DNA of 64,000 nucleotides from Candidatus Uhrbacteria bacterium (GTDB taxonomy: Bacteria; Patescibacteriota; Patescibacteriia; UBA9934; GWF2-40-263): positions 5,498-69,497 of the forward strand of contig JACPHU010000013.1 of the NCBI GenBank assembly GCA_016188495.1, written 5' to 3'. The notes beneath the pieces were generated by a model. It was not told where the DNA came from and searched no databases. It saw only the letters and a list, made by a program, of their open reading frames with translations. Shown here piece by piece: positions 7,617-31,691 of this stretch. The position numbers and the translations under genes are program-made. Numbering within the stretch: position 1 is the stretch's first letter; the number at the start of each line of letters is the position of its first letter.

Positions 7617-8987
7617 ATGTTTCAATTTTATCGCCATGTTCATTTTGTGGGAATTGGAGGCATTGGGATGTCTGCCCTTGCAAAGTGGTTTATCCATGAA
7701 GGGATCAGGGTGAGTGGTTCTGATGTGTCTGCCAATACTATAACGGAGGATCTTCGTAAACGCGGAGTCAGATTTTTTTCAGGTCATGCCGTTTCCAATA
7801 TCGCCCAAGATGTTGATTTGCTTATCTACACCTCAGCGATTCCACAAGACAATACTGAACGACAGTATGCTCAAGAACGCGGTATTCCTCAGAAATCTTA
7901 TTTTGAAATGCTCGGAGAAATTTCTAAATCTTTTTCGACCATTGTCGTGACAGGCACCAACGGGAAAAGTACGACCACGGCCATGTTGGGACTTTTATTG
8001 GAAGCAGCCGGGTATGATCCAACCGTTCTTGTCGGCTCGCTTGTTCCGGGATTTCCCGATGGAAATCTTCGTTTGGGGAAAGGACGTTTTTTTGTGGTCG
8101 AAGGATGTGAATATCGCGCCAACATGATGAATCTGGAACCCGAGATGATCGTCCTTACGAATATCGAAGAAGACCATTTAGATTATTACCGTGACCTGGC
8201 TCATATTCAGGAGACGTTCCAGGCATTCGTACAAAAACTTCAAGGAAAGGGACTCGTGGTTTATAACGCCATGGATTCAGGAACCAAGCCTTTGCATTTT
8301 TTTCGAAGTGTTGGATATGGGTTGGAAAAAGAAACGGACTATGTTGCGCGACAGAGACGAGTTTCACAAGGCCTTCAACAAGTCAGCATCTATCGTCATG
8401 AGGCGCAGGAGATTTCTATGGGGGATTTAACATTGCAAATTCCAGGGACGTTTAATGTCATGAACGCCCTTGCCGCGATTTCTGCGGCCATGGAAATAGG
8501 AATTCCTTTTGAAACCTGTCGTCGAGTTTTGGAACAGTTCAAAGGCATTTGGCGTCGTTTTGAAAGGTTAGGTGTGTGGAAGGGGGCAGATATTCTGTCT
8601 GATTACGGCCATCATCCAAGTGCGATTGCTCAGACGATTGAGGCTGCGAGAGAATTTTTTCCAGGTCGAAGAATCATTTTGTGTTATCAACCTCATCAGC
8701 ATGACAGAACGAAAAAATTGTTTGATGAGTTTGTTCAGACGTTAGCCCTTGCCGACCATGCGATCGTCGTAGAGATTTATGATGTGGCAGGACGCAACGA
8801 AGTGCATGATGTGAGTTCGAAGGATCTCGTGTTGGCGATCAAGAAAAAAGATTCTGCAAAGGATATCGTCTATGCCGAAGATTTTATGGCAGCAGAACAA
8901 TTATTGCGGGATCATATTCAACCCAATGATGTTCTTCTCATGATGGGTGCTGGAGATATTGATTCGCTAGCAAGAAAACTCGTATGA
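7617..8987 (+). CDS. murC: UDP-N-acetylmuramate--L-alanine ligase
   Basis: HFVGIGGIGMSALA and the Mur ligase P-loop GTNGKSTT. The start is set at ATG 7617 (MFQFYRH) because the ORF-track start at 7599 would include an extended -10-like sequence TGATAAAAT. Confidence 0.85.
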   Translation: MFQFYRHVHFVGIGGIGMSALAKWFIHEGIRVSGSDVSANTITEDLRKRGVRFFSGHAVSNIAQDVDLLIYTSAIPQDNTERQYAQERGIPQKSYFEMLGEISKSFSTIVVTGTNGKSTTTAMLGLLLEAAGYDPTVLVGSLVPGFPDGNLRLGKGRFFVVEGCEYRANMMNLEPEMIVLTNIEEDHLDYYRDLAHIQETFQAFVQKLQGKGLVVYNAMDSGTKPLHFFRSVGYGLEKETDYVARQRRVSQGLQQVSIYRHEAQEISMGDLTLQIPGTFNVMNALAAISAAMEIGIPFETCRRVLEQFKGIWRRFERLGVWKGADILSDYGHHPSAIAQTIEAAREFFPGRRIILCYQPHQHDRTKKLFDEFVQTLALADHAIVVEIYDVAGRNEVHDVSSKDLVLAIKKKDSAKDIVYAEDFMAAEQLLRDHIQPNDVLLMMGAGDIDSLARKLV

Positions 8988-9946
8988 CTATTTCTCAACA
9001 GTTAACAAACATCGTCGGCAATCGAATGACAGAGAATGAACCCATGTCCAAGCATACGAATTTTCGTATTGGCGGTCCGGCAAAGTGGTTTGTCGAAGTA
9101 AGATCTCTTTCTGAACTTCAGGAAGTGTTGAACGTGGTTAAAAATCATCAACTCTCTTTTTTTGTGCTGGGAGGCGGATCCAATATTCTCGTGAGCGATC
9201 AGGGGTTTGACGGCGTTGTTGTGAAGATGGCGATGCGCACTTATGAAATTCAAGGAAATCGTGTCAGATCCGATGCTGGGGTTCTTGCGAGCGCTTTGGC
9301 ACGCGCGACGGCAACACACGGACTAAAAGGACTTGCGTGGGCAATTTCACTTCCTGGAACTGTTGGCGGGGGTGTGCGAGGGAACGCGGGTTGTTTTGGT
9401 GGCGAGATGAAAGATTGCCTTGTTAGTGCGGTGGTGCTTCGTGACGGAGAATTGATTGAACTCAAAAAAGAGGATTTAGCTTTTGGGTATCGTGAGTCTA
9501 TTATTAAGCACAGTCGCGATATTATCGTGTCTGCAACATTTGAGTTACAAGAAGGAGATCCCGTAGAATTGAAAATGGAATTAGACGATAAGCTTATGAA
9601 GCGTAAGAAGTCTCAACCATTGGACGCAGGATCTGCAGGATGTCTGTTTAAAAATTATGAGATAAAAAATGACGAAGAGGTGCAACGTCTTTCCTCTAAA
9701 CTCGATATACCTTCAGAGATGTGGTCAGCCCGGCGGATTTCCGCCGGCTGGCTCATCGACAATCTGGATCTTAAAGGTATGCAGATTGGTGGAGCAAAAA
9801 TCAGTGGACAACACGGAAATTTTGTCGTTAATACAGGTTCTGCTACGGCGGATGACGTAGTTCAATTAGTTGCCTTGGTAAAAACCCGTGCTCGCAATGA
9901 ATATGGTATTGTGTTGAAGGAGGAGGTTCAATACGTTGGCTTCTAA
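8984..9946 (+). CDS. murB: UDP-N-acetylenolpyruvoylglucosamine reductase
   Basis: NFRIGGPAKWF, VLGGGSNIL and the MurB C-terminal region. Its start overlaps the murC stop by 4 nt. Confidence 0.9.
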   Translation: MTISQQLTNIVGNRMTENEPMSKHTNFRIGGPAKWFVEVRSLSELQEVLNVVKNHQLSFFVLGGGSNILVSDQGFDGVVVKMAMRTYEIQGNRVRSDAGVLASALARATATHGLKGLAWAISLPGTVGGGVRGNAGCFGGEMKDCLVSAVVLRDGELIELKKEDLAFGYRESIIKHSRDIIVSATFELQEGDPVELKMELDDKLMKRKKSQPLDAGSAGCLFKNYEIKNDEEVQRLSSKLDIPSEMWSARRISAGWLIDNLDLKGMQIGGAKISGQHGNFVVNTGSATADDVVQLVALVKTRARNEYGIVLKEEVQYVGF

Positions 9947-10074
9947 AATTTTTCAAAAAATCGCGATCTTGCGGCTTACGGGCGCCCGTCGACTCCGCTC
10001 TCCCTATTGTGAATAGGGTTCGCGCAGCTCGACAGCCCGTGCACCGCAATCTCATCGATTTTTTGAAAAATTTT
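9945..10074 (+). repeat. Palindromic intercistronic element, copy A. About 130 nt, with 19-bp perfect terminal inverted repeats.
   Basis: AAAATTTTTCAAAAAATCG at 9945-9963 pairs perfectly with 10056-10074. An internal hairpin CCCTAT-TGTGA-ATAGGG lies at 10002-10018. Core segments CGATCTTGC, TCGACTC and GCAATCTCATCGA are shared with copy B in the same transcriptional orientation. Confidence 0.7.
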
Positions 10075-10116
10075 AATTAAATAAGAATTCTGAAAAGTGA
10101 TAATTTATTAGTGTTT

Positions 10117-10464
10117 ATGCGTATTACTTCAATAAAAGGAACGAACATGCTTCTTACTGATGCCATTAAATCTCGTGTGACTTCACAAGCCGTTGCATTG
10201 GAAAAGTTAACAAAAGGTTTTGAACCTGCGGCAGAATTACGAGTAGAAGTTGGAAAATCAACAAAACATCATGTTAAAGGACCTTTTTATCTTGCAGAAT
10301 TTCAACTCCACGTTCCAGGAACGGAATTAAGAGCGTCTGTTTTGGAAGAGGATTTATATCACGCGATCTCTCAGGCTCGAGATCAAATACGACGACAGCT
10401 CAAGGGATACAAAGATAAATTAAAAGAGAAGAGTCAAAAAAAAGAACGACCAGGTAAAAAATAA
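10117..10464 (+). CDS. hpf: Ribosome hibernation promoting factor / RaiA (YfiA) family
   Basis: MRITSIKGTN...LLTDAIKSRV...FYLAEFQLHVPG fits the HPF pattern. The start was trimmed to ATG 10117. Confidence 0.8.
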   Translation: MRITSIKGTNMLLTDAIKSRVTSQAVALEKLTKGFEPAAELRVEVGKSTKHHVKGPFYLAEFQLHVPGTELRASVLEEDLYHAISQARDQIRRQLKGYKDKLKEKSQKKERPGKK

Positions 10465-10530
10465 AGAAACCTCGTCGAGTTTTCTAGAGGTTTCTAAAAT
10501 CAAACGACGGGGGAAATCCCCGTCGTTTGA
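10465..10530 (+). other. Two strong hairpins between hpf and secA, with no U-tract after either
   Basis: AGAAACCTC...GAGGTTTCT at 10465-10495, and TCAAACGACGGGG-GAAAT-CCCCGTCGTTTGA, a 13-bp stem, at 10500-10530. Confidence 0.5.
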
Positions 10531-10564
10531 TTAATTCATCAAAAAAGAGGATAATCATGCCCGT

Positions 10565-20725: not shown

Positions 20726-22885
20726 ATGTCTTACAATCACGACCATGAAAACGAAGTAAATTACTTCGCCAAGACCAATTTCCGAAATCAAATGACAAAA
20801 TTCGGAATTAAGACGGATGATCGTCGCCGACATGTCTATGTGATCGGAAAGACAGGTATGGGAAAAACGACCCTCCTGGAGAATTTTATTTTATCTGATA
20901 TTTACGCTGGGCACGGATGCTGTTATGTAGATCCTCATGGAGACACTGCTGAAAAATTGATCAATTACATTCCAAGTTGGAGACTCAATGACGTGGTGTA
21001 TTTCAATCCCGCGGACATGGATTATCCTGTTGGATTTAATATTCTTGAAGCGGTAAGCGAACGTCATAAACATCTTGTCGCCTCAGGAATGATGGGGGTC
21101 TTTCAAAAAATATGGGAAAACATGTGGTCTTCACGCATGGAGTATATTTTAAATAACACCATTCTTGCTCTCTTGGATAATCCTGGACAGACACTGCTTG
21201 GAATTAACCGAATGCTTTCTGACGCTGATTTTCGAAAACGTATTATCGGAAACGTCAAAGATCCTGTGGTTCGTCAGTTTTGGTTAAAGGAGTTTGCTTC
21301 TTATAACGATAAGTATGCCCAGGAAGCCGTAGCTCCTATTCAAAATAAGATCGGACAATTCCTTTCAGCGACCGTTATTAGAAATATCGTTGCCCAAGTC
21401 AAGTCTTCTATTAATGTTCGGGAAATCATGGATAGCGAGAAAATTTTTATTATCAATCTTTCGAAAGGACGTATCGGTGAAGATAATTCTCGGTTATTGG
21501 GAGGACTTCTTATTACGAAAATTCAGTTATCAGCGATGGAACGTGTTGATACGCCAGAAAAAGAACGAAAAGATTTTTACTTATACGTCGACGAATTTCA
21601 AAATTTTGCCGTTGAATCTTTCGCGAGTATTTTATCTGAGGCTCGTAAGTACCGTTTGTGTCTAACCATGGCGCATCAATATATTGCCCAATTAACAGAA
21701 GAGGTGCGCGATGCGGTGTTTGGAAACGTTGGTACTATCATTACGTTTCGTGTTGGTTCCCCCGACGCTGTTTTTATGGAGGCAGAGTTCATGCCACGGT
21801 TTACTCCAGAAGACATTATTAATCTTCCAAAGTTTAACGTTTATCTCAAACTGCTTATTGAAGGGGTTACGAGTCAGCCTTTTTCTGCCATGACGCTTTC
21901 GCCTATTGCTCAAGTGACCCATTCCGAAGAAAAAGTCATCAAGATTTCTCGTGAGCGTTATGCCAAACCTAGAGCTGAAATCGAAGAGAAGATTCTGCAA
22001 TGGAGCGGTATGGAGAATACGGATATGGAGACGCTTTTGAAAGAGGCTGAACAGAAGAAAAAAGACCAGAAAGAAAGTAAGAAACCACGATTTGAATATA
22101 AGTGTTCTCGTTGCGGTAAAGATGTTGTATTACCTGTTGAACTCGATCGATCTCGACCTATTTATTGTGATGACTGTATTGCTATTGTTCGGGATGAGCG
22201 CAAAACTGGTAAAAAACCTTTTGTTAAACCACCTTTTCCTCCTAAGCCTTCGGAAGGACAATCGGTTGAAAAGCTTCCTGAGGAGCCTTCTATCACGTTA
22301 AGCACGCTGCGAAAGCCTTCTATTTCGGCTCCGGTTTCGGTTCCTAAATCCGTCGTCGTGCCTTCAAGAACACCTGCACCTGCAACACCTGCACCTGCAA
22401 CACCTGCACCTGCAACACCTGCACCTGCAACACCTGCACCTGCAACACCTGCACCTGCAACACCTGCACCTGCAACACCTGCACCTGCAACACCTGCACC
22501 TGCACAACGTTCTTCAGTGGCAAGTCATTCATACACGTGTTCTGATTGTACACGCACGTTTAGCGCCGGAGTGAAACTTGATCCTAGTCGTTCGTTGTAC
22601 TGCCAAGAGTGTTTAGAAAAAATTCGCGCGAAGCGTAAAGAACATCCTGTTGAAAAAAAACAAGAAGCCAATCACCCAAGGCTTGTTACCAGTTCGGTGG
22701 TCCAAAGTAGCTTATCGCAACAGACCGATGACGTTACAAAAAAGAAACGTAAACGTAAAAGAAAAAATAAACAGACAGAGACTGTGCCTTCTGTTCATAC
22801 AGAGTCGATGTCTCCTAAAAAACCTGAACCTCCTCAAGAAAAATTGGGAACGCTAAAAACAGGACAAACCGTTCATTTTGATTAA
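20726..22885 (+). CDS. TraD/VirD4/FtsK-HerA-superfamily P-loop ATPase (type IV secretion coupling-protein-like). It has a C-terminal double zinc ribbon and a (TPAPA)9 linker.
   Basis: Walker A is VIGKTGMGKTT. DPHGD follows. Walker B is LYVDEFQNF. LTMAHQ is also present. The C-terminus has CSRCGK...RPIYCDDC and CSDCTR...RSLYCQEC, both YacG-like CxxC...YCxxC ribbons, separated by nine TPAPA repeats. Confidence 0.7.
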   Translation: MSYNHDHENEVNYFAKTNFRNQMTKFGIKTDDRRRHVYVIGKTGMGKTTLLENFILSDIYAGHGCCYVDPHGDTAEKLINYIPSWRLNDVVYFNPADMDYPVGFNILEAVSERHKHLVASGMMGVFQKIWENMWSSRMEYILNNTILALLDNPGQTLLGINRMLSDADFRKRIIGNVKDPVVRQFWLKEFASYNDKYAQEAVAPIQNKIGQFLSATVIRNIVAQVKSSINVREIMDSEKIFIINLSKGRIGEDNSRLLGGLLITKIQLSAMERVDTPEKERKDFYLYVDEFQNFAVESFASILSEARKYRLCLTMAHQYIAQLTEEVRDAVFGNVGTIITFRVGSPDAVFMEAEFMPRFTPEDIINLPKFNVYLKLLIEGVTSQPFSAMTLSPIAQVTHSEEKVIKISRERYAKPRAEIEEKILQWSGMENTDMETLLKEAEQKKKDQKESKKPRFEYKCSRCGKDVVLPVELDRSRPIYCDDCIAIVRDERKTGKKPFVKPPFPPKPSEGQSVEKLPEEPSITLSTLRKPSISAPVSVPKSVVVPSRTPAPATPAPATPAPATPAPATPAPATPAPATPAPATPAPATPAPAQRSSVASHSYTCSDCTRTFSAGVKLDPSRSLYCQECLEKIRAKRKEHPVEKKQEANHPRLVTSSVVQSSLSQQTDDVTKKKRKRKRKNKQTETVPSVHTESMSPKKPEPPQEKLGTLKTGQTVHFD
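22370..22504 (+). repeat. Perfect 9 x 15-nt tandem repeat (ACACCTGCACCTGCA) encoding (TPAPA)9
   Basis: It is read in frame inside the ATPase gene. It also creates the spurious antisense ORF at 22344-22553. Confidence 0.9.
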
Positions 22886-29558: not shown

Positions 29559-30410
29559 TTATCCGAATTTTGCCATCCAATGCTTGTCCACTTCTACCGT
29601 GAGATCAAGAAAGACTTTTGTATTAAGAACAGCTTCCAGTTCGTGGCGGGTCGATTGACCGATTTCCCGAATGCCGCGACCGCCCTGACCGATGATCATG
29701 CGTTTATAGCGATCGTCATTTGTAAAGATGGTTCCCGCGATATAGATCATTCCATTGGGTCGTTCTTCTACCTCGCTTACCTCTACGTGGGTACTGTAGG
29801 GGACTTCCTGACGCAAACGCAGAAAGAGTTTTTCTCGAATCAGTTCTGCCAACCATACCTTATTTGGCATGTTTGTAAGCTGGTGTTCTGGGTAGTAATA
29901 CTCACCTTCGGGCATCAGCTCAAACAGTTTTTTAACAAGATGATTGATGTTGGTTTCTCGCAAGGCTGAGACTTCAAACGTGGCTGTATACTCTGGTGAA
30001 AGATCGCGATAGAAATCAAGAAACGGTTTTATTTTGGCATCTATTTTATTGATGACCAAAATTTTTGGCTTTTGCAAAGAGGCAATGGTACGCATGACTT
30101 CGCGCTCTTCTTGTCCGATTTCACGCGTTGGATCTACTACGTATACAATCACATCAACATCGTTGAGTGACGCTCGGACAGATTCTGCAAGTTTTTTAGA
30201 TAAAAGATCCTTTTCTCCTTTAAGAACTCCTGGAGTATCCACGAAGACCATTTGCCCTTCCTCGCGTGTGATAATCCCTTGGATAGGAAGACGCGTGGTT
30301 TGCGGTTTTGGGGTAGTAATGGCAATTTTTGAACCAACGATCGTGTTCATGAGGGTTGATTTACCCACGTTTGAACGACCGATCATCACGACGAAACCAG
30401 ATTTTGGCAT
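29559..30410 (-). CDS. era: GTPase Era
   Basis: G1 GRSNVGKSTL, G3 DTPG, NKID and a C-terminal KH domain. Confidence 0.9.
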   Translation of the reverse strand: MPKSGFVVMIGRSNVGKSTLMNTIVGSKIAITTPKPQTTRLPIQGIITREEGQMVFVDTPGVLKGEKDLLSKKLAESVRASLNDVDVIVYVVDPTREIGQEEREVMRTIASLQKPKILVINKIDAKIKPFLDFYRDLSPEYTATFEVSALRETNINHLVKKLFELMPEGEYYYPEHQLTNMPNKVWLAELIREKLFLRLRQEVPYSTHVEVSEVEERPNGMIYIAGTIFTNDDRYKRMIIGQGGRGIREIGQSTRHELEAVLNTKVFLDLTVEVDKHWMAKFG

Positions 30411-30430
30411 AGAATAGAGGTAATCAGATT

Positions 30431-30559
30431 AGGAATTGTCGTCTTATTCGATGAGATTGCCTTGAATGGGGCGATCGACGACAGAGCCGTACTCACAGTA
30501 CGGTGACGAGTCGATGGGGCCCCATGAAAGGCAAGATCGCGAATGAGACGACAATTCCT
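30431..30559 (-). repeat. Palindromic intercistronic element, copy B. 129 nt, with 14-bp perfect terminal inverted repeats. It lies between the rumA-like stop and the era start.
   Basis: AGGAATTGTCGTCT at 30431-30444 pairs perfectly with 30546-30559. An internal hairpin CCGTAC-TCACA-GTACGG lies at 30487-30503; its loop reads TGTGA on the transcribed strand. The core is shared with copy A in the same orientation relative to transcription. Confidence 0.7.
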
Positions 30560-30560
30560 T

Positions 30561-31691
30561 TTACTTAAGAAGTAAAGAAGAGACTAGTTCAACATGAGGA
30601 GTATGTGGAAACAGATCAATCGCGCGCATGGCTTCCACGGTATAGTATTGCTGTAATTGTATCATTTCTCGCGCAAAGTTTTTGTAGTTACAGGAAATAT
30701 AGACAATGTGTTTTGGTTTAACCTGGAGAATATCCTCTAGAGCCTTATCATGCATTCCGCTGCGAGGAGGATCAAGAATAACGACATCACCACTAAGATT
30801 TTTCCAATCAAATTCTTCCGTCTTGGCATCATGATACTGGATGGTTCTATCATTAATTTCGGCATTTATCCGAGCATCTCTGATGGCATCCTTGCTCATT
30901 TCTACCCCGATGCATTCTTTGGCTTTTTCCGCTAACGCGATAGAAAAGAATCCTGATCCGCAATATAAATCTAAGAGCGTTTTTTGATGCATGTCACCAC
31001 AAAACGCAGTAACGGTTTCAAGAAGGAGCTTAGCTCCATGGGGATTTGTCTGAAAGAATGCGTTTGGACTTATACGATAGGTCGATGATCCGATGCGTTC
31101 TTCTATAAATCCTGGACCCGAGATCGTTTGTAGAACGTCTCCAAAACTGATATCCGTGATCGTACTGTTTTGAGACCAAATGAGTGTTGTCGCAAGAGAT
31201 TCTTTGGCCAGATGGGCAAGAGACTCTTGAAGAAAAGAAGATTCTTGCTCATGTTGTGGGACCGAAGTGATCACGTTGATCATCGTTTCTCCTAAGGTTG
31301 TCGATCGGATCACAGCGTAGCGTAAAAGACCTTGATGACTTTTGCGATCATAATAAGAGAGTCCGGAGGATTTCACCCATGTTCGTACGATGTGGAACAG
31401 ATCCTCGATTTTTTTATCAGCCAAAAAACAGGTGTGTCCATCAATCACTTTCCACCATTTTCCTTTTTCCCGCATTCCTACACGACCTTCGAAATCGATC
31501 ACAAAGTCCATGCGATTCCGGTAATGTTCTGTGATAGGAGATGGTAAAATGGTTTCACACAACAGATCCACATTTTTTATCTTGAAAGATCCATTGATAT
31601 CTGAAACTTTTTGAAGAAGCTGTTTCTGGTAGGGAATATGAGACCAAGAACAAGATCCACAAATGTCTTTATTTGAGCAAAGAGATGACAT
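30561..31691 (-). CDS. RNA (uracil-5-)-methyltransferase, RumA/RlmD-TrmA family
   Basis: An N-terminal Cys cluster CGSCSWSH. A class I SAM fold with LDLYCGSGFF, DPPRSG and a C-terminal catalytic Cys region. Confidence 0.8.
   Translation of the reverse strand: MSSLCSNKDICGSCSWSHIPYQKQLLQKVSDINGSFKIKNVDLLCETILPSPITEHYRNRMDFVIDFEGRVGMREKGKWWKVIDGHTCFLADKKIEDLFHIVRTWVKSSGLSYYDRKSHQGLLRYAVIRSTTLGETMINVITSVPQHEQESSFLQESLAHLAKESLATTLIWSQNSTITDISFGDVLQTISGPGFIEERIGSSTYRISPNAFFQTNPHGAKLLLETVTAFCGDMHQKTLLDLYCGSGFFSIALAEKAKECIGVEMSKDAIRDARINAEINDRTIQYHDAKTEEFDWKNLSGDVVILDPPRSGMHDKALEDILQVKPKHIVYISCNYKNFAREMIQLQQYYTVEAMRAIDLFPHTPHVELVSSLLLK

Follow-up and report, generated by a model that had tools for sequence, protein, structure and literature searches.

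A palindromic MITE family with IS5-type ends in Candidatus Uhrbacteria and a recent insertion at a rumA-era junction

Introduction

Bacterial MITEs derived from IS5-type insertion sequences are short, non-coding, multi-copy elements with terminal inverted repeats, short target-site duplications, and a variable interior. MITEAba12 is reportedly a possible example, and the Tourist/PIF-Harbinger elements, with their TAA duplications, offer a eukaryotic parallel. In the ISfinder scheme, the IS5, IS427, and IS1031 groups combine a duplication of 2-4 bp with ends that start with GA or GG. The palindromic element described here, termed element B, and the family to which it belongs share all of these MITE features, and the consensus ends of the family are identical to those of an element that encodes an IS5-family DDE transposase. 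The family differs from IS5-derived MITEs in that the whole element is one long hairpin with covarying stems, conservation is higher in the asymmetric subterminal loop than in the terminal repeats, CPR bacteria serve as hosts, and the ends of B itself are off consensus.

Several other groups of small repeats invite comparison. The Correia/NEMIS elements of Neisseria, ERIC, and RUP are likewise about 100-155 bp long, carry long terminal inverted repeats, lie next to genes or within operons, and are transcribed as hairpins. Their sequences, however, are unrelated to those of the B family, their duplication is TA, and their hosts belong to other phyla; Correia/NEMIS and ERIC are not known to have a transposase, and RUP is linked to an IS630-type enzyme. 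B differs from Correia/NEMIS (conserved 26-bp terminal repeat, TA duplication, Neisseria host) in its duplication and its host and, as compared by description, in its ends. RNase III is said to cleave Correia hairpins, a result credited to De Gregorio et al. that serves as a model for a possible effect on era. REP/REPIN sequences with their RAYT partners are also intergenic hairpin repeats with conserved imperfections, often at stop codons, but they have no target duplications, bear a GTAG head, and flank a RAYT gene, and the B family shows none of these traits. Finally, Acido-Lenti-1 (RF01687), from Acidobacteria and Lentisphaerae rather than CPR bacteria, is listed as a probable sRNA, with no function given (Weinberg et al. 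2010, PMC2864571). It resembles the B family in being a covarying hairpin motif and in occurring within elements bounded by family-type ends, but its core sequence and structure are different, and RF01687 gave no match to B even at E <= 10. Overall, B is none of Correia, ERIC, RUP, REPIN, or any Rfam family.

The genomes of CPR bacteria (Patescibacteria) are tiny, streamlined, and generally thought to be repeat-poor. A literature search covering MITEs in CPR or Uhrbacteria, Uhrbacteria repeats, and this terminal repeat found no description. Here, we follow up an earlier note on element B in a 64-kb window of DNA from a Candidatus Uhrbacteria (CPR) bacterium, i.e., the whole stretch of DNA that was analysed. 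We conclude that B is probably a copy of a fully palindromic, non-coding MITE of ~130 nt that is widespread in Candidatus Uhrbacteria, a family for which we propose IS5-type trans-mobilisation.

Element B and its sibling copy in the window

Element B is 129 nt long, has no coding capacity, and lies wholly between two ORFs (Table 1). Its GC content is 52%, compared to ~42% in the surrounding region. Both flanking genes are on the minus strand, and this strand is predicted to fold into one long hairpin with a minimum free energy of -68.1 kcal/mol; dinucleotide shuffles give -31.2 +/- 3.4 kcal/mol (z = -10.9), and none of 200 folds as stably. The perfect terminal arms measure 14-17 bp, and the near-continuous pairing of the predicted stem exceeds 20 bp, long enough for an RNase III substrate. 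On the plus strand, the arms read AGGAATTGTCGTCT at 30431-30444 and AGACGACAATTCCT at 30546-30559, and the apical hairpin reads CCGTAC-TCACA-GTACGG at 30487-30503.

The earlier note, made from the sequence alone, had placed the terminal arms and the apical hairpin at these positions, and both are found there. It had also listed a set of nested palindromes; these are present, one of them matching at 7/8 positions rather than perfectly (ttgcctt/aaggcaa). The extent that it gave, 30431-30559, has the correct length of 129 nt but is one base off the extent defined by the empty site (30432-30560); by chance, the T in the right-hand TAA lengthens the palindrome and causes this offset. The spacer to the era start (ATG at 30410) is 20-21 nt, as it had claimed.

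B was further claimed to belong to the same palindromic family as a second element, A, and this relationship is borne out by shared motifs and by covariance-model scores of 104.7 bits for B and 119.9 bits for A. The region of A (about 9944-10075) folds likewise (-62.7 kcal/mol, z = -8.6). When A on the plus strand is aligned to B on the minus strand, the common motifs are TCGCGATCTTGC, TCGACTC, the loop TGTGA, and GCAATCTCATCGA; the outer stems are unrelated in sequence, each being perfectly paired. Both copies are co-oriented with their flanking genes and start at a stop codon, the left TAA of A being the stop codon of ORF 8984-9946. The TAA...TAA arrangement around A as well as B suggests that TAA stop codons are the target of the copies in this genome. 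No third copy and no solo ends were found in the 64-kb window by the covariance model or by motif and end searches. Two adjacent small hairpins (GAAACCTCGTCGAGTTTTCTAGAGGTTTC, then AAATCAAACGACGGGGAAATCCCCGTCGTTTGATT) lie at 10466-10533, 3' of ORF 10111-10464, and the minus-strand reading of the first (GAAACCTCTAGAAAACTCG) is similar to a MITE end that has collapsed.

Table 1. Positions of element B, its parts, its neighbours, and related features. Numbers refer to the window unless a locus is named.
Feature	Position	Strand	Remarks and basis
MITE copy B proper	30432..30560	-	129 nt, single long imperfect hairpin; fold, family model R1 (104.7 bits), boundaries from the empty site in L235 and L107
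B 5' terminal arm AAGGAATTGTCGTCTCAT	30543..30560	-	pairs with 30432-30447; sequence differs from family consensus GAGACCTCTGCAAAAC
B 3' terminal arm ATAAGACGACAATTCC	30432..30447	-	
B 5' subterminal motif TCGCGATCTTGC	30531..30542	-	5' side of the invariant asymmetric internal loop; contains GATC
B 3' subterminal motif GCAATCTCATCGA	30448..30460	-	3' side of the asymmetric internal loop
B apical hairpin CCGTAC-TGTGA-GTACGG	30487..30503	-	module variable and dispensable across the family
B target-site duplication TAA, left copy	30561..30563	-	stop codon of the rumA-like gene; empty site in L235
B target-site duplication TAA, right copy	30429..30431	-	now 18 nt upstream of the era ATG; empty/filled comparison
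Upstream gene: RlmD/RumA-family 23S rRNA methyltransferase, 376 aa	30561..31691	-	TIGR00479, 217 bits vs cutoff 184
Downstream gene: GTPase Era, 283 aa	29559..30410	-	NF000908, 314 bits; start codon conserved in all relatives
Sibling copy A	9947..10073	+	same family as B; TAA at 9944-9946 and 10074-10076 on its flanks
MITE copies that carry the GC-rich mini-hairpin	L028:2557-2720, L028:5933-6097, L067:1175-1340, L153:12724-12941, L188:3053-3214, L219:3232-3400		

Insertion history at the rumA-era junction

A groundwater contig with a 99% identical Era protein (L235) carries the empty site, CTTCTTAAG-TAA-TCTGATTACC (right flank TCTGATTACCTCT). The window has the filled allele, CTTCTTAAG-TAA-[129 nt]-TAA-TCTGATTACCTCT, with flanks identical to those of L235. 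The same empty site is present in a second relative (L107; Era 96% identical), and in five further relatives (80-83%) the two genes are separated by 2-61 nt without the element. Synteny from the rumA-like gene to era is kept in every relative examined (n = 7), the junction is empty in 7/7, and the family model returned 0 copies when run over 57 kb of the relatives' junction loci. The named closest Era relatives (80-83% identity) are all Candidatus Uhrbacteria. With L235 and L107 showing the same flanks around a single TAA, and the other five relatives also lacking the element, these comparisons show that B inserted precisely at the TAA that ends the rumA-like gene and duplicated it, and that this recent event is polymorphic among near-identical strains. 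The left TAA continues to terminate the rumA-like gene, and era is still preceded by the right TAA followed by its original spacer of 18 nt.

A survey of orthologous rumA-era junctions had been suggested in the earlier note as a check on mobility, and the seven empty relatives supply that evidence. The same comparison is at odds with two functional readings of the element. B does not behave as a conserved 5'-UTR regulator of era, being a recent insertion that is absent from near-identical strains, at a junction where the genes of relatives lie 2-61 nt apart. Likewise, the analogy to the rnc-era hairpin of E. coli fails, as in this case a rumA-like methyltransferase gene precedes era and the hairpin arrived by insertion.

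The Logan assemblies of SRR12113419 (L001:1-96) and SRR12113418 (L234:2632-2679) both end inside B. The two contigs encode identical Era and RumA-like proteins and overlap only at the central CATGGGGCCCCATC, one breaking from each side. These assemblies are fragmented by palindromic MITEs.

A dispersed family with a covarying structure

One genome per species was searched for the two non-palindromic motifs, spaced as observed, and many matches of 91-95 nt were obtained, nearly all in Uhrbacteria or Patescibacteria MAGs; the other matches are longer, lie in unrelated phyla, and look like chance. Within about 50 Uhrbacteria loci, we recognise 52 pattern-matching and about 9 diverged copies, and at least nine can occur in a single MAG, JACRJW01 and JAHFIQ01 being among the high-copy MAGs. 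The prospect, raised in the earlier note, that the element is unique to this window does not hold, with at least 60 family copies in Uhrbacteria MAGs. A covariance model built from the 52 aligned copies recovered additional copies that the search pattern had missed, and more occur in JGI metagenomes.

Target-site duplications were scored with element ends anchored at a fixed distance from the core, and flanks mismatched between copies served as the control. This procedure replaced a palindrome-extension heuristic for element ends, which overshot. A direct repeat of at least 3 nt lies exactly at both ends in 24 of the 52 copies (46%), compared to 3% in the control. Duplications range from 3 to 6 nt with a mode of 4 (15 copies); that of B is 3 nt (TAA). 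In summary, B has the defining features of a bacterial MITE, i.e., a short non-coding sequence, terminal repeats, a duplication with a corresponding empty site, and dispersed copies.

The consensus structure of the family contains 47 pairs, with 90.8% of cells paired versus 34-45% when partners are slid by 1-3 columns. Both sides have changed in 36 of the 47 pairs, and the observed values were reached by 0/500 shuffles. Hence the covariation support on which the earlier note had made its reading depend is present; hairpin pairing is conserved, with abundant compensatory changes. The outer stem is 16-19 bp long and 95% paired, and it varies freely yet stays paired (GAGACCTCTGCAAAAC, GGGACTGTTCCCGAAT, GGAACTATTTCCAAAT, AAAGCCGGCGGTAACC, GGAATTGTCGTCTCAT in B, and others). 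An asymmetric internal loop, 5' GCGATCT / 3' ATCTCATC, is invariant and is kept even in diverged copies outside the search pattern.

The interior is built of modules: the apex is missing from copies of 77-86 nt, and between one and three additional hairpins are present in copies of 162-218 nt. A variable interior enclosed by conserved ends and subterminal motifs is the ordinary layout of a MITE. One of the additional hairpins, a recurrent GC-rich mini-hairpin (CCCGCCCGA...TCGGGCGGG), occupies the same place on the 3' arm of diverged copies from different genomes (Table 1) and may represent either an optional arm or a site-specific insertion nested in the element.

Many copies are associated with stop codons, about 25 of the 61 lying within 5 nt of one at one end. 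In several copies, the stop is a TGA made of a flanking T and the GA of the element; canonical GAGACC ends restore a TGA stop after any T. Where the target is duplicated, the original stop (TAA or TGA) was hit, as in L007, where GAG-AAG-T runs into the GA of the element, the duplication is GAAGT, and AA follows. In compact genomes, insertions at stop codons are probably those that survive. A solo end-like sequence (GGGACCTCTGCAAAAGTCGG) with no partner arm also lies directly after a stop codon at L019:3069-3087 (minus strand), and it is followed by a gene-free stretch of ~340 nt up to the next MITE copy.

Ends shared with an IS5-type insertion sequence

The consensus end of typical copies is GAGACCTCTGCAAAA(S)TCG, where S is C or G. 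Metagenomes were scanned for this end with something other than the family core after it, which yielded >120 loci. At three of these (L182, L189, and L221), the same 19-nt end, with a matching inverted end, bounds elements of ~1155-1157 bp that encode an IS5-family DDE transposase (NF033581; 255, 164, and 257 bits, respectively, vs a cutoff of 140). Pfam identifies DUF772 and DDE_Tnp_1 in this protein, and the same IS5-family transposase gene is present in L175 and L226. Its relatives on annotated plasmids are all <40% identical and are annotated as 'IS5 family transposase'. On the strength of these matches, we interpret the family as a MITE family whose ends are common to an IS5-type insertion sequence. 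The family ends GAGACC, GGGACT, GGAACT, and GGAATT, together with the duplications of 3-5 bp, fit the features of the IS5, IS427, and IS1031 groups.

The two kinds of element have only their 16-19-nt ends in common, the conserved subterminal motifs of the MITE being absent from the full-length insertion sequence. The full-length copies lie on contigs of 58-63% GC and not on the Uhrbacteria loci examined, and tblastn searches of the window and of about 490 kb from Uhrbacteria loci found no IS5-type transposase. The ends of B (GGAATTGTCGTCTC) differ from the consensus that ties the family to IS5-type elements, as do those of A (AATTTTTCAAAAAA); neither is GAGACC, and the ends of A and B share with the consensus only G-R-R-A-Y-Y over the first six bases. 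Ends of the B type were found neither elsewhere in the window nor in the 233 loci examined. As B moved very recently, this lineage must contain a copy that served as its source and an enzyme able to move it.

Proposed mobilisation and alternative explanations

We propose that the family is trans-mobilised: an IS5-type transposase would cut its terminal inverted repeats, and copies would move by cut-and-paste with a staggered target cut of 3-5 bp. The invariant subterminal motifs (left TCGCGATCTTGC, right GCAATCTCATCGA) would be needed for propagation, e.g., as binding sites for the transposase or a host factor, and the loop motifs would be kept since only copies retaining them propagate. The interior would be dispensable, modular filler. 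Complementarity between the arms would be kept at the DNA level, with no need for RNA-level selection; candidate causes are that both ends must fit one transposase and/or that quasi-palindromes undergo template-switch correction, a mechanism known from E. coli genetics. In the rumA-era transcript, B would form a very stable stem-loop (-68 kcal/mol) between the cistrons that may alter coupling or make an RNase III substrate. By analogy to Correia elements, an effect on era expression or on rumA-era coupling, or RNase III cleavage of the transcript, is plausible as a by-product.

Several points count against this explanation: the off-consensus ends of B and A, the lack of an IS5-type transposase in the Uhrbacteria DNA examined, the restriction of the resemblance to the full-length insertion sequence to its ends, and the duplication of 3 nt at B where the family mode is 4. 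Moreover, a freely varying outer stem combined with an invariant asymmetric loop is the reverse of the usual MITE pattern. The loop (5' GCGAUCU / 3' AUCUCAUC as RNA), flanked by covarying stems and optional arms, might be a structure-specific recognition module, such that the elements are propagated, or exapted by their hosts, via folded ssDNA or RNA, and the IS5-type ends are one of several vehicles. If true, the module could be, e.g., a protein-binding hairpin that insulates or processes operon transcripts. We consider this explanation unlikely.

It is also conceivable, at a low probability, that B acts chiefly in cis as a structured RNA, whether by regulating era from between the cistrons, by providing an RNase III processing site, or by stabilising the mRNA. 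On this view, selection would act on its fold, and its repetition would reflect repeated recruitment. The great stability of the hairpin and the compensatory changes in 36/47 pairs, with 0/500 shuffles as good, are in keeping with such a role; the invariant asymmetric loop with optional arms at a fixed position resembles structured-RNA architecture, and both window copies run with their flanking genes from a stop codon. However, the junction is empty in the relative with a 99% identical Era and in six more, and target-site duplications are present. The pairing statistics are also unfavourable to this role. Pairs in the family are 89% Watson-Crick with few wobbles (G-T 2%), and the gene-sense orientation shows no G-T enrichment (48 G-T cells vs 81 A-C cells), such that RNA-level selection, as judged by G-U versus A-C asymmetry, received no support and was set aside. 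Orientation relative to transcription is just 19:10 in tandem-gene contexts (co-oriented vs anti, from crude ORF calls; p = 0.14), 15 copies lie between convergent genes, and antisense copies also occur. Rfam at the gathering threshold gave 0 matches in the window, and a permissive scan of B returned a plant miRNA hairpin as its best hit, at 31 bits vs a threshold of 90. Neither a sigma-70-like promoter nor an intrinsic terminator was predicted around B (0 terminator-like sites in 30300-30700). Together, the few wobbles, the weak orientation bias, and the lack of an Rfam, promoter, or terminator match argue against the view that the structure exists to serve a strand-specific RNA function. The evidence favours maintenance at the DNA level.

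Variable but paired stems with invariant mismatched loops are what structure-specific HUH enzymes select, and B could in principle be a REP/REPIN-like element moved as an ssDNA hairpin by an HUH transposase (Y1, RAYT/IS200-like) that recognises an imperfect hairpin and its irregularities. Y1_Tnp genes (PF01797, E = 4e-13 and 2e-11) do occur near copies, at a distance of 93 nt in L103 and 1.2 kb in L019. Nevertheless, HUH transposition proceeds without target duplications, yet 46% of copies and B itself (TAA) have them, and the single TAA in the empty site of B contradicts pre-existing flanking repeats. The Y1 genes carry unrelated inverted repeats of their own (29-32 nt, GGGGTCAGGTCT...), the elements have no GTAG-type REP head, and their ends match IS5-type DDE elements. 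We therefore regard this explanation as very improbable, and the IS200-like Y1 transposase was rejected as the mobiliser given its own inverted repeats and a chemistry that gives no duplications. In a search for an autonomous partner among about 50 Uhrbacteria loci (solo terminal repeats, multi-copy ORFs), this unrelated transposase was the only candidate found.

The Y1_Tnp genes themselves belong to IS-like units at L019:474-1421 and L103:4495-5416, each with an IS200-like gene (PF01797) for a protein of 285-303 aa. The inverted repeats of these units are near-perfect and begin GGGGTCAGGTCT, and the units are 55% identical between MAGs; the one in L103 is the unit that lies 93 nt from a MITE copy.

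Finally, an intrinsic, possibly bidirectional, terminator between rumA and era would account for a stable GC-rich hairpin right after a stop codon, but it is extremely unlikely given that no U-tract follows the stem on either strand, no terminator-like sites were detected, the genes of relatives lie 2-61 nt apart without a hairpin (implying co-transcription), and a 129-nt stem is far larger than terminator hairpins.

These elements matter in several respects. A CPR lineage holds a MITE family that attains at least nine copies in single MAGs and is still moving between near-identical groundwater strains. The elements enter stop codons within operons of core genes (rumA-era) and leave both ORFs intact, which shows how compact genomes tolerate them. 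Palindromic MITEs also break short-read assemblies, are useful as presence/absence markers at the strain level, and can be mistaken for regulatory RNAs.

Other elements with the same ends and further repeats

In loci from soil, peat, and sediment metagenomes (L114-L233), at least five or six further families of short elements, with unrelated cores, are bounded by the same 19-nt end. These families measure 99, 120-122, 128-130, 140, 145-167, and 248-303 nt. Many of the elements have flanks such as CTGAAG or CCTTCA, a possible target preference, and one (L132) has a 5-nt duplication, TTTCA.

Inverted-repeat elements of ~257 nt with GAGACCTCTGCAAAAGTCG ends carry one RF01687 motif per arm (L174:141-397, L184, and L201, all JGI metagenome contigs). 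The motifs score 44.6, 43.4, and 40.9 bits vs a gathering threshold of 37 and start about 9 nt inside the end. In the published seed alignment of Acido-Lenti-1, the printed flanking sequence includes ...AAAGGUCUC, the end of this terminal repeat (PMC2864571). Based on these matches, the Acido-Lenti-1 'probable sRNA' may be the subterminal part of an IS5-type MITE, i.e., part of a transposon.

Two other repeats occur in the window. A 29-nt direct repeat (CCGTTCGACAAGCTCACGACAGACAGGCT and CCGTTCGATCTACTCACGACAGGCAAGCT) lies at 2672-2746, its starts 46 nt apart. At 22339-22534, a 15-nt tandem repeat, AACACCTGCACCTGC, is present in about 10 mostly perfect copies; if coding on the minus strand, it would specify a repeated short Ala/Gly-rich peptide unit, as translated by eye.
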